Both the position numbers and the translations under genes were made by a program. This document shows positions 18,349-40,803 of a stretch of 64,000 bases of DNA, piece by piece. Within the stretch, counting starts at the first letter, position 1; the number at the start of each line of letters is the position of its first letter. Under the pieces are notes generated by a model. It was not told where the DNA came from. It saw nothing but the letters and a program-made list of their open reading frames with translations, and did not search any database. This DNA is from Candidatus Lustribacter sp. (GTDB taxonomy: Bacteria; Vulcanimicrobiota; Vulcanimicrobiia; Vulcanimicrobiales; Vulcanimicrobiaceae), in NCBI GenBank assembly GCA_965277805.1, contig OZ255842.1:3872001-3936000 (forward strand). Reading direction: 5' to 3'.

Positions 18349-19002
18349 ATGGCGAAAGTTCAACGCGTCACCAACGTGACGATCCATTCCCGCGCCGAAA
18401 TCGGCACCACCGGCGCCAAGAAGGCACGCCGCGAAGGCCGCATCCCCGGCGCACTGTACGGTCACGGCGACGCGCAAGCGATCGCAGTCGACGCGAAAAC
18501 CCTCAACGAGCTGCTCTCATCGGGCGGCCAAAGCCACATCGTCGAAGCGACGATCGCCGGCAAGAAAGAATCCGTGCTGTTGCGTGAAGTGCAGCGCGAT
18601 CCGATCACGCACCGTCCGATCGCGGCCGACTTCCAGCGCGTCTCGTCGACCGAGGCGATCAACGCTTCGGTGCCGATCGTCACCGTCGGCGTCGCGCCGG
18701 GCGTGAAAGAGGGCGGCGGCGTCATGGACGTCGTGACCCACGCACTCGAGGTCAAGGGCCCGGCGGGAAGCCTGCCGGAGCACTTCGAGCTCGACGTCAC
18801 CGCGCTCAACGTCAACGATCACATCACCGCCGGTGATGTGAAGTTGCCGGCCGGGTTCACCCTGATCACGCCGGCGGAAACCGTCGTCGTGGCGGTTGAA
18901 GGCTCGCGCACGGCGTCCGACGATGCGGCGCTCACCGCTGCAGCAGCGGCCGCCGCACCGGCTCCGGTGCCCGACGCCGCAGCCGCACCCGCCGCTTCGT
19001 AG
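18349..19002 (+). CDS. rplY: 50S ribosomal protein bL25/Ctc
   Basis: RREGRIPGALYG, EVQRDP, GVKEGG; Ala/Pro-rich tail. Confidence 0.95.
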   Translation: MAKVQRVTNVTIHSRAEIGTTGAKKARREGRIPGALYGHGDAQAIAVDAKTLNELLSSGGQSHIVEATIAGKKESVLLREVQRDPITHRPIAADFQRVSSTEAINASVPIVTVGVAPGVKEGGGVMDVVTHALEVKGPAGSLPEHFELDVTALNVNDHITAGDVKLPAGFTLITPAETVVVAVEGSRTASDDAALTAAAAAAAPAPVPDAAAAPAAS

Positions 19003-19011
19003 TTCGGCGTC

Positions 19012-19623
19012 ATCGACGACCTTCGGCTCATCGTCGGGCTCGGCAACCCCGGGCCCGAATATGCGCGAACGCGCCACAACATCGGGTTCATGGTCGTCGA
19101 AGAACTCGCGCGCCGCTGGCAGCTTTCGAACTGGACCAAGCGGCGCGACGCGCGCCTCGTGCTCGATCGCAGCCGCAATGCCGCGATCGTCGAGCCGCTC
19201 GCATACATGAACGAAAGCGGCCCGCCGACGCTCGGCGTGGCGACGTTCTACAAAGTGCCCCCGCCGCGGATCCTGGTCGTCGTCGACGATCTGGATTTGC
19301 CGTTCGCGCGGCTACGTCTGCGTGCGGAGGGAAGTTCCGGCGGACACAACGGGCTCAAGTCGCTGATCGAAGTCTTCGGGCAAGGTTTTCCGCGGCTGCG
19401 CGTAGGCATCGGCCGTGATCGCGACAGCGGTGAAGCGATTCGCCACGTGCTCGGCACGTTTTCGCCCGCGGAAATCGAGGCGCTGCCGGGCGTAATCGAC
19501 CGCTGCATCGAGGGCATCGAGCTGTGGCTGCGTGGTGACATGCAGGGCGCGTTGAACCGCGTGAACGCTTCGAACGCACCAAATGCAAAGAGGAACGAAG
19601 CCGAAGAGCCCAAAGAAAAATAG
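19012..19623 (+). CDS. pth: Peptidyl-tRNA hydrolase (no canonical start; ATC 19012 used provisionally)
   Basis: LIVGLGNPG..Y..TRHNIGF upstream of first ATG (19090), YMNESG, DDLDL, GGHNGLKS, RLRVGIG. Confidence 0.93.
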   Translation: MDDLRLIVGLGNPGPEYARTRHNIGFMVVEELARRWQLSNWTKRRDARLVLDRSRNAAIVEPLAYMNESGPPTLGVATFYKVPPPRILVVVDDLDLPFARLRLRAEGSSGGHNGLKSLIEVFGQGFPRLRVGIGRDRDSGEAIRHVLGTFSPAEIEALPGVIDRCIEGIELWLRGDMQGALNRVNASNAPNAKRNEAEEPKEK

Positions 19624-20271
19624 ATGATCGTCGTTCGGATCGACGAGTCGACGCTCGCGACCGATGGCACTACCCTCTACGCGGATCTCGCGTTTCTGGT
19701 CGAGCGCGGCCAGCAGCCGATCGTCGTCGCGCCGTCGACCGACGCGGCCCGCACGATCGTGAAGACGATAAACCGCACGAGCGATTCGGCCGTCGGCGTG
19801 TCGGGCGCCGACGCCGGCATGTTGCCCGCCGCGGGTGAGGGTTTGGGCGCGGTGCAGACGCGGCTCTTGCACACGCTGCTTTCGGCCGGCTACATCCCGG
19901 TCGTCGAGCCGCTCGCATTCGGAATGTTCGGCGGCGACGTCGAGGTACAAGCCGACGAGGTTGCAAGCGCGGTCGCGCGCTCGATGGCGGCAAAGCGCGC
20001 GCTCTTCTTCCACGAGAACGGCGGCGTGATCGATTCGCTGACGCGCGAGTGCATCGGCGAGCTCACGCCGGCCGAAGCGCTCGCGCTGGCCGAAGATACG
20101 ACGCTGCCGCACGACCTGCGGGCGGCGATGCGTGCCGCGGCGCTCGGCGTGCGCGGCGGCGTCGGCGCCGCCGACATCCTCGACGGGCGCATCGCGCACG
20201 CCTCGATCGTCGAGCTCCTTACCGCCCGCCACGTCGGCACGCGCGTGCTGGGAACGGTCTTCCTCCAGTAA
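19624..20271 (+). CDS. Degenerate acetylglutamate-kinase-like (amino acid kinase fold) protein
   Basis: AVGVSGADAG, GYIPVV, QADEVA..VA, ILDGRIAH resemble ArgB; K-x-GG and HGGG motifs absent. Confidence 0.6.
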   Translation: MIVVRIDESTLATDGTTLYADLAFLVERGQQPIVVAPSTDAARTIVKTINRTSDSAVGVSGADAGMLPAAGEGLGAVQTRLLHTLLSAGYIPVVEPLAFGMFGGDVEVQADEVASAVARSMAAKRALFFHENGGVIDSLTRECIGELTPAEALALAEDTTLPHDLRAAMRAAALGVRGGVGAADILDGRIAHASIVELLTARHVGTRVLGTVFLQ

Positions 20272-39992: not shown

Positions 39993-40120
39993 AGCCGAAG
40001 CAGCGTCGAGAGACGCTCACCGGATGCCTCACGGCGATCCGGTCGCAACCTCAGGAGCCCGTCGGCACGGGTCTCGTGAATAGCGGAGATGCTTCGGCGT
40101 CCCCGTTCTTTTGTTTTTGT
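39993..40120 (+). ncRNA. Probable L20 leader (ribosomal protein autoregulatory attenuator)
   Basis: Located before infC-rpmI-rplT; stacked hairpins (agcgtc/gacgct, ccggat/atccgg, cccgt/acggg) ending in a U-tailed terminator at about 40083-40118. Confidence 0.65.
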
Positions 40121-40134
40121 CAGGAGTAAAGCCC

Positions 40135-40803
40135 ATAGCACGACCGCTACGCGTCAACGACCAGATCCGTATCCGCACCGTTCGAGTAATCGACGATGAA
40201 GGGACGCAGCTCGGCGTCATGCCGACTGAGGAAGCGATGAACCTCGCGCGCTCAAAAGGCCTCGACCTCATCGAAGTCTCGCCCACCGCGGTTCCGCCGG
40301 TCTGTAGAATTGGTGATTACGGCCGTCTCAAGTACGAGCAATCGAAGAAAGACAAAGACGCGCGCAAGAAGCAGAAAAACTTCGAATTGCGCGAGGTCAA
40401 ATTGCGACCGAAAATCGACACCCACGACTACGAAGTCAAAGCGAAGATGGCCGAACGGCTGCTTCTCGACGGCGGCAAAGTCAAAGTGACGATCATGTTC
40501 CGGGGTCGCGAGATCACCTACACGTCGTACGGCAAACGGTTGCTCGATCGCATCTCGGTCGATCTCGCGAACAGCGCGATCGTCGAGCGCGACGCCAAAC
40601 TCGAAGGCAAAAACATGTTCCTCATCCTCGCCCCGCGGCAGACGCCGCTCGGCCCGCCGCGATTCGTCCATCACAAAGACGAAGCCGCGCCGACGCACGA
40701 GCAGGCCACGCACGTGGGCGAACATCCGGATGACGAACACGAAGACGCACATGAATCCGTGGAACACCACGAAACACCACCAGTCGAGGGAGCTCATGCC
40801 TAA
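40135..40803 (+). CDS. infC: Translation initiation factor IF-3 (ATA start, His/acidic tail)
   Basis: VNDQIR, LDLIEVSP, PPVCRI.DYG, MFRGRE; AGGAG RBS before ATA 40135. Confidence 0.95.
   Translation: MARPLRVNDQIRIRTVRVIDDEGTQLGVMPTEEAMNLARSKGLDLIEVSPTAVPPVCRIGDYGRLKYEQSKKDKDARKKQKNFELREVKLRPKIDTHDYEVKAKMAERLLLDGGKVKVTIMFRGREITYTSYGKRLLDRISVDLANSAIVERDAKLEGKNMFLILAPRQTPLGPPRFVHHKDEAAPTHEQATHVGEHPDDEHEDAHESVEHHETPPVEGAHA

Follow-up and report, generated by a model that had tools for sequence, protein, structure and literature searches.

The pth locus of Candidatus Lustribacter sp. raises the question of where translation of this gene begins. The window analysed here is a 64,000-nt stretch of contig OZ255842.1 (assembly GCA_965277805.1, positions 3,872,001 to 3,936,000 of the forward strand), and all coordinates below refer to it unless a genome handle is given. 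In this window, pth lies directly behind rplY, which encodes the long TL5/CTC form of the ribosomal protein bL25, and no canonical start codon precedes the catalytic residues of Pth. The gene is intact, a canonical start is missing, and an AUH codon (AUA, AUC or AUU) together with a tie to the rplY stop is kept across relatives. Comparison of these sequences suggests that pth probably starts at the AUC at 19012, which would be read by the initiator tRNA in ribosomes that have just completed rplY 9 nt upstream. From this pattern we infer the use of the initiator tRNA at AUC, the dependence on rplY translation, the sensitivity to IF3 and a role in stoichiometry.

The rplY gene, identified as an open reading frame (ORF) and by Pfam, occupies 18349..19002 on the plus strand. 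It starts with ATG, and a canonical start is kept in its relatives. The product contains the L25p N-terminal domain (PF01386, 68.3 bits) and the TL5 C-terminal domain (PF14693, 85.4 bits), and ends in an Ala/Pro-rich C-terminal tail. The stop codon TAG (19000..19002, plus strand) is in frame with pth, and rplY (18349-19002) and pth (to 19623) form one frame that is open after TAG 19000 up to TAG 19621-19623. A 9-nt spacer, TTC GGC GTC (19003..19011, plus strand), separates this stop from the ATC (19012..19014, plus strand), the proposed near-cognate initiation codon of pth, which is located 8 codons before the Gly of the GLGNPG motif. In-frame ATG, GTG, TTG and CTG are absent across 19003-19089. 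The first is the ATG at 19090..19092 (plus strand), which lies inside the Pth domain and opens an ORF of 177 amino acids (19090..19623). Moreover, the spacer carries no Shine-Dalgarno (SD) core, with GGAG, GAGG and AGGA all missing 4-11 nt upstream of ATC 19012.

The proposed coding sequence of pth covers 19012..19623 on the plus strand, with 203 codons followed by the stop TAG (19621-19623). Its product matches the Pth1 family PF01195 with 193.9 bits against a cut-off of 27, over profile positions 1-183 of 183, and position 1 of the profile maps to 19027. It also aligns with the solved Pth 2jrc (E = 4e-41), and the GLGNPG and RHN motifs align identically with those of the M. tuberculosis enzyme. 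The GLGNPG motif is encoded at 19036..19053 and the RHN motif at 19072..19080 (both plus strand). The former includes the Asn codon 19045-19047, the counterpart of E. coli Asn10, and the latter the catalytic His codon 19075-19077, so that both codons are located upstream of ATG 19090. In the E. coli Pth-tRNA structure, His20 is reported as the catalytic base, and Asn10 as the residue discriminating peptidyl-tRNA from aminoacyl-tRNA (PMC3488237). Judged by its sequence, the window gene is a member of the Pth1 family with both His and Asn present. With an in-frame stop three codons upstream and the next canonical codon, at 19090, already past the catalytic Asn and His, such a protein can have no other start. 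The original prediction had quoted the TAG-to-ATC junction and had claimed that no ATG, GTG, TTG or CTG lies between TAG 19000 and ATG 19090, that no SD is evident, that the Asn and His precede this ATG and that bL25 ends in a linker-like Ala/Pro tail; all of this agrees with our reading of the locus.

The absent start could in principle reflect an assembly error or a pseudogene. The missing start is the sole pointer to this, and the source assembly may be long-read based. However, the gene is single-copy in a one-contig genome of 5.53 Mb and gives a full-length Pfam match free of stops. Contigs from three sequencing runs of one sample, probably the assembly's own source, are identical over 18700-19400, and a contig from a run of another study covers 18856-19190 gap-free, differing by 6 substitutions. 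In addition, all eight genomes of the genus show the same layout, in which the rplY stop is followed by 1-4 codons, ATC or ATA, and then GAC/GAG-GAC..., in frame and without a canonical start; the junction in G003 is identical to that of the window. Because all eight genomes show it and the contig of the other study bridges the junction without a gap, the missing start is not an error. The gene is not a pseudogene but intact, and an error or pseudogene is virtually excluded. The original prediction had called for a check of the reads for error; the assembled contigs compared here show the same start-less junction.

To place this junction in its lineage, pth junctions were sampled from 40 relatives, 6 species-representative records of Eremiobacterota and 60 further genomes of the family. 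The final set comprises 91 loci of Eremiobacterota (= Vulcanimicrobiota) from 59 genus-level groups, with 74 pth loci from other phyla as outgroup. Two loci were left out (L242, without a recognisable motif, and L021, from the unpublished genome G015), and three duplicates were merged (L032 = L213, L035 = L224, L036 = L225). Codon positions were counted back from the Gly of GLGNPG, which puts the window ATC at -8. The near-cognate class includes ATA, ATC, ATT and CTG at -4 to -20, whereas canonical codons were scored at -4 to -25.

In the seven nearest genus groups (24 loci), the codon at -8 is ATC in 14, ATA in two, ATT in one and ATG in one. Of the other six, three have a canonical start farther upstream (L213, L214, L216), one carries TCG (L217), one is a base short of its congener (L228) and one is built differently at the junction (L230). 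None of the 24 combines the same junction with Val or Leu at -8. Within the genus, the codon is ATC or ATA in 8/8 genomes although the spacer differs in length and sequence (3, 6, 9 or 12 nt), and the upstream stop is TAG in seven of them and TAA in one. ATA is used 0.55 times per 1000 codons in the genome, versus 45.8 for ATC. The locus with ATG at -8 (L218) has its rplY 83 nt away in another frame, and therefore a free-standing Pth beginning at -8 exists in a relative. Two marks of a near-cognate start, a start-capable codon kept in relatives and its alternation with ATG, are both seen in the nearest loci, and the first of them also in 8/8 genus genomes. Furthermore, two proteins from Eremiobacterota metagenome-assembled genomes begin with MGDLVLIVGLGNPG and MAEGLALIVGLGNPG (P0198, P0208), placing Met at or adjoining the -8 position. 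With numbering from the ATC, the sixth residue of the window protein falls opposite residue 6 of the solved M. tuberculosis enzyme (2z2i, 2jrc), and therefore the N-terminal length equals that of a characterised enzyme.

The same pattern extends over the phylum. Of the 91 Eremiobacterota loci, 19 have a canonical codon at -4 to -25, two have one only at -3, 58 have near-cognate codons only and 12 have none. By contrast, 72 of the 74 loci from other phyla have a canonical codon at -4 to -25, the remaining two have only TTG at -3, and neither near-cognate-only loci nor loci without any start-like codon were found. The genomes have not lost canonical starts in general, as rplY begins with ATG, GTG or TTG in 35 of 36 Eremiobacterota loci, the last being unclear. 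The predicted near-cognate start of pth is clade-wide and gene-specific.

The start region of pth is closely linked with the end of rplY. With 45 nt or less between the end of rplY and GLGNPG, 55 loci have a near-cognate codon, 11 a canonical one and ten none, whereas the corresponding numbers are three, ten and two at more than 45 nt. Near-cognate starts thus account for 55/76 loci with a close stop versus 3/15 with a distant one (Fisher 8e-5, a value overstated by the non-independence of kin). Two forms of the junction predominate. In 50 of the 91 loci, pth is in the -1 frame (frame 2) relative to rplY, and the codon at the start position typically overlaps the stop as ATAG or ATAA. This arrangement in sister genera corresponds to the widespread ATGA overlap, with a near-cognate codon in place of ATG. 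An SD core is found 4-11 nt upstream in 18/24 of the overlapped ATA loci, versus 0/24 at a control position 30 nt farther upstream. In genus group g35, the sequence ATA-AAG-CTC-GTT-GTC-GGG would encode (M)KLVVGLG, matching the MKLIVGLGNPG-type N-terminus of many outgroup loci. In the other form, to which the window belongs, the two genes share one frame (frame 0, 37 of 91) with ATC or CTG placed 0-4 codons past the stop, and SD cores are not enriched (6/26, control 6/26). The remaining four loci are in the +1 frame (frame 1). As to the stop codon itself, rplY ends with TAG in 63, TAA in 24 and TGA in four of the 91 loci; TGA is strongly under-used there, and the stop usage of the 3,933 coding ORFs of the genome is TGA 40%, TAG 33% and TAA 27%.

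We consider it probable that pth is translated by coupled reinitiation at AUC 19012. In this mechanism, rplY and pth would be co-transcribed, and ribosomes ending bL25 synthesis at UAG 19000-19002 would stay bound to the mRNA and begin anew at the AUC, 9 nt further on, with the initiator tRNA. In line with this, the two genes lie on the same strand at a distance of +9 nt, and no promoter-like or terminator-like site is present between them in the window. The distance falls in the range of -8 to +10 nt that has been treated as predictive of termination-reinitiation, coupling being lost steeply with distance (PMC10666635). As no SD is present, the restart would depend on this proximity, namely on termination-reinitiation coupling. 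The AUC would be read by mismatch pairing with the ordinary initiator tRNA, as at infC. The product would be a 203-residue Pth, (f)Met-Asp-Asp-Leu-Arg-Leu-Ile-Val-Gly-Leu-Gly-Asn-Pro-Gly..., with the predicted N-terminal peptide (M)DDLRLIVGLGNPGPEYAR. A weak codon behind a highly expressed ribosomal-protein gene would keep Pth output at a small fixed fraction of bL25 output, and would also make it sensitive to initiation fidelity, i.e. to the level of IF3. In one E. coli construct, AUA, AUU and AUC are reported to work at about 5-7.5% of AUG (PMC5499595), and reinitiation in E. coli reportedly requires formylated initiator tRNA and drops upon IF3 overexpression (PMC2268962). By analogy, IF3 sensitivity of pth is plausible.

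Special features of the translation apparatus or of the mRNA were considered and rejected. ARAGORN gives a single, ordinary initiator tRNA-CAU, with the C1:A72 mismatch and three G-C pairs in the anticodon stem, which excludes an extra or unusual initiator tRNA; two further CAU tRNAs and one Ile-GAU are also predicted. A loss of fidelity or recycling factors is excluded likewise, genes for RsmD-like and RsmB-like proteins and for RRF all being present. The fold of 18950-19070 is no better than that of shuffled sequences (z -1.04), which speaks against a structured RNA at the junction, and an Rfam search of the whole window had no match. In the frame-2 loci, -1 frameshifting was discarded, as no slippery sequence was seen by eye in the junctions inspected.

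Several observations weigh against reinitiation at an AUH codon as a complete account. The combination of a weak codon with a missing SD in the window genus predicts a very low efficiency, and the counts across kin are not independent. Twelve of the 91 loci lack any near-cognate codon (for example L217, L241 and L250), and therefore AUH initiation is not the whole story for the phylum. Six of the twelve (L012, L230, L248, L255, L263, L270) carry GTA at the start position, overlapping the rplY stop; an SD core is suitably spaced in all of them except L270, and in 10 of the 16 GTA loci overall. GTA is not a single-mismatch near-cognate of AUG, and no other start-like codon is present in these six loci. 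Either GUA is used there, or assembly errors are involved, or another mechanism operates. Two of the GTA loci, L012 (G024) and L230 (G098), have identical 47-nt rplY-pth junctions under differing genus labels (g18, g85), which may reflect cross-binning or mislabelling. One locus (L224) retains ATC even though rplY ends 116 nt away and in another frame. In this locus, from Candidatus Velthaea (the same as L035), an insertion of about 113 nt stands between the end of rplY and an in-frame TAG-CGC-ATC junction. The insertion holds a hairpin and an open frame of 26 codons, TTG among them, that runs up to this TAG; use of the open frame is unsupported, and coupling of the ATC to such an upstream ORF was rejected. 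Finally, among loci with no more than 45 nt between the rplY stop and GLGNPG, frame 0 is found in 18 genus groups and frame +1 in only two. This in-frame bias is not predicted by reinitiation with the initiator tRNA and finds no explanation in current reinitiation models. Spacers in multiples of three could be neutral if the stop shifts by point mutation within a disordered tail, and part of the bias could be phylogenetic inertia.

The in-frame bias is also an argument for routes on which the ribosome would continue from rplY into pth without a new initiation event. In one of them, a fraction of the ribosomes would decode UAG 19000 with a near-cognate tRNA to give a bL25-Pth fusion of about 424 residues, which would supply the Pth activity and might be tethered to the 50S subunit. 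The 18 to 2 preponderance of frame 0 among genus groups with a close stop, the frame shared by 8/8 genus genomes with spacers of 3, 6, 9 and 12 nt, the missing SD enrichment in the frame-0 group, the three frame-0 loci without any start-like codon (L217, L241, L250) and the linker-like Ala/Pro tail of bL25 are all compatible with such a fusion. However, the shared frame is not kept in the phylum, where it is found in only 37 of 91 loci. In L218 and L224, whose rplY stops are distant and in other frames, pth is unlinked from rplY. Within the genus, the stop is either TAG or TAA and the next base is T, C or G, so a leaky stop context is not conserved, and the spacer residues are unconserved as well. 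Among the 47 tRNA genes found by ARAGORN, none has a CUA anticodon, and spacers in multiples of three might also arise neutrally. A search with the readthrough product as query found PF01386 and PF01195 together in 8/120 proteins among the matches listed, all of them singletons. Six of the eight contain Arg-rich out-of-frame stretches typical of assembly frameshifts. The other two (P0006, P0009) look clean but belong to distant lineages; in P0009, a Met is still present internally where Pth usually starts. Most of these natural fusions look like frameshift artefacts, and they were not counted as support for readthrough. Altogether, a readthrough fusion is quite unlikely as the main source of Pth; some minor in-frame route might contribute. 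The original prediction had left the choice between coupled reinitiation at AUC 19012 and a bL25-Pth readthrough fusion. The former is favoured by the comparative data, namely ATH in 17 of the 24 nearest loci and ATG in one, the register of the M. tuberculosis Met1, and near-cognate starts tied to a close rplY stop; the latter finds no support as a conserved mechanism. Of the junction features that it had proposed to compare across relatives, an ATG at the ATC position exists in L218 and the frame is kept within the genus, but not across the phylum.

A related route is that some post-termination ribosomes which are not released resume in frame after the UAG, yielding a free Pth with an FGV extension without the use of initiator tRNA. 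This would account for the in-frame bias, the missing SD and the start-less frame-0 loci, and in-frame resumption by unreleased post-termination ribosomes has been reported in E. coli systems lacking RRF (PMC9955659). Yet the published effect needs RRF to be inactivated, whereas RRF is present in this genome. Resumption also gives no reason for the retention of ATH or ATG at -8, and it is inapplicable to the 50 frame-2 loci; we regard it as very unlikely. All in-frame routes together are rather unlikely. A broader proposal joins two claims, namely that the SD-less in-frame lineages, including that of the window, make Pth partly or wholly without true initiation (by readthrough or resumption), and that pth belongs to an IF3-tuned near-cognate set with infC (AUA), rpsA (AUC/AUU) and rsfS (CUG), pth itself using AUH/CUG. 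This combination appears unlikely; if Pth were indeed made without true initiation, its supply would report directly on the quality of termination and recycling. Initiation could also take place elsewhere, at a second AUC (19030, two codons before GLGNPG) or at ATG 19090 with a truncated protein of 177 amino acids. The ATG is the sole canonical codon, ATC 19030 is near-cognate too, and an ATG three codons before the GLGNPG glycine is present in L225, L214, L216 and L223. A start at 19090, however, would deprive the only pth product of the genome of roughly the first 21 Pfam positions, which contain both the Asn and the catalytic His. Moreover, synonymous changes leave the residues between -8 and -3 intact (DDLRL in the genus, T-R in other genera), and hence these residues are translated. 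These alternative starts are highly improbable, and reinitiation at AUC 19012 remains the preferred reading.

Near-cognate initiation is found elsewhere in the window and the genome. In infC (40122-40803 including its SD), an SD sequence AGGAG (40122-40126) and an 8-nt spacer precede an ATA start at 40135-40137 (plus strand). The infC start codon is ATA, ATC or ATT in 30/30 loci of relatives (two of them from unpublished genomes), with a GGAG-like SD upstream by eye. ATA occurs in all inspected loci of the window family bar one with ATC, while ATC is found in the sister family and ATT in sister-class loci. AUH initiation works in this lineage, because the SD-AUH arrangement of infC is kept in relatives and an SD stands upstream of the ATAG/ATAA junctions of pth. 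Upstream of the infC SD, TTG codons are located at 40111 and 40117, and a GC-rich hairpin followed by a T-run is seen by eye directly before it (40084-40120, plus strand), which may be an attenuator or leader.

The 3,933 coding ORFs of the genome were screened for coding signal before the first canonical start, and pth ranks 36, counted from 0. Pfam searches on the top 40 together with inspection reveal at least 12 genes with a domain that starts ahead of any canonical codon, including rpsA, rsfS, valS, pth, and those for an FMN dehydrogenase, a HAD hydrolase, a GT2 glycosyltransferase, an AlgX-like protein, YmdB, TldD/PmbA, MR_MLE and MarR. Eight of these are L115, L119, L123, L125, L126, L130, L133 and L139 (G000), with CTGA overlaps for HAD and GT2, ATC for YmdB and ATA for MR_MLE. 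Near-cognate starts seem commoner in this genome than in model bacteria. Three of the genes encode further components of translation; as for infC, the counts of relatives for rpsA and rsfS include the unpublished genomes G015 and G036. In rpsA (L113, G000:C1:4060880-4062061, minus strand), no ATG, GTG or TTG is present in the first 94 codons past the upstream stop, and the gene most likely starts at an ATT behind an A-rich leader. Its conserved N-terminal peptide begins with ATC/ATT in 19/19 analysed loci of the family, nine of which have no canonical codon upstream of a conserved acidic motif, and with ATG in the three analysable sister-class loci. In rsfS (L114, G000:C1:4912069-4912473, minus strand), the Pfam domain extends from residue 30 and the first canonical codon is at 105. 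The arrangement of an SD (GGGAGA), 6 nt and CTG is kept in most family members, and ATG occupies the same place in the sister family. For valS (L141, G000:C1:1465504-1468152, plus strand), an ATT start is located three codons past an in-frame TAA (IQELAKSYDP...). This ATT is limited to G000, G003 and G004, most other relatives having ATG or GTG, and therefore the switch is recent. On these comparisons, pth appears to be one of a few translation genes, with infC, rpsA and rsfS, that have long retained near-cognate starts in the lineage. That these four genes form an IF3-tuned set is speculation.

The proposed start of pth adds to two kinds of phenomena that are both already established, near-cognate starts and termination-reinitiation coupling. 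Like infC, whose AUU/AUC triplets have been described as the target of IF3 autoregulation (PMC5499595), pth is a gene of the translation apparatus that keeps an AUH start across a lineage. Unlike infC, which has a good SD and initiates alone, the window pth has no SD and stands 9 nt behind the stop of another gene, and the feedback loop known for infC has no known or demonstrated counterpart in pth. In Deinococcus, N-terminal peptides have been reported to show that translation of dnaA starts at ATC and that of rpsL at CTG (PMC2830850). These are likewise conserved housekeeping genes with near-cognate starts missed by gene finders, but there the evidence comes from peptides and here from comparison, and the tie to an upstream stop is specific to pth; the main text of the Deinococcus paper makes no mention of pth. 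Coupling is reported at +3 nt (E. coli galT-galK and rplK-rplA), and also without an SD (PMC12548453). The rplY-pth junction resembles such termination-reinitiation pairs (ATGA, TAATG or a short gap) in that both genes are on the same strand with stop and start a few nt apart; in such pairs, the efficiency drops sharply as the distance grows. It differs from the described pairs, which restart at ATG, GTG or TTG, in that the restart codon of pth would be near-cognate (ATC, ATA or CTG) in most of the phylum. The term 'near-cognate' is absent from the review PMC12548453, where the two mentions of 'non-canonical' concern an SD sequence and the title of a reference. No published account of a near-cognate pth start was found in the literature searched, as judged by titles and the openings of abstracts.

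If pth starts at the AUC, its annotation is affected well beyond this genome. The closest relatives in a collection of 5.8 billion proteins are mostly 169-177 amino acids long and cover 84-87% of the query, and two retrieved relatives (P0121, P0122) start at the internal Met that matches 19090. Short database entries beginning at this internal Met therefore indicate that public gene calls systematically miss the true start. Gene finders would thus reduce an essential Pth to a catalytically dead fragment of 169-177 amino acids, with consequences for the annotation, completeness estimates and alignments of this soil phylum. With its putative start, pth joins the short list of housekeeping genes on near-cognate starts. 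A weak codon beside a close stop would fit a simple means by which a low-copy rescue enzyme is kept at a small, constant share of ribosomal-protein synthesis, and the near-cognate starts of infC, rpsA and rsfS in the same family raise the idea of a wider set of IF3-sensitive translation genes.

Two minor observations concern the genome and the window. ARAGORN also predicts in G000 a tRNA-Ser with the anticodon ACT and a tRNA-Sec, and the genome has a SelA gene (L137). In the window, the stop TAG of pth (19621-19623) directly abuts the ATG at 19624 of a gene of the amino-acid-kinase family (19624..20271, plus strand; PF00696, 33.8 bits), which is probably coupled to pth via its canonical start.

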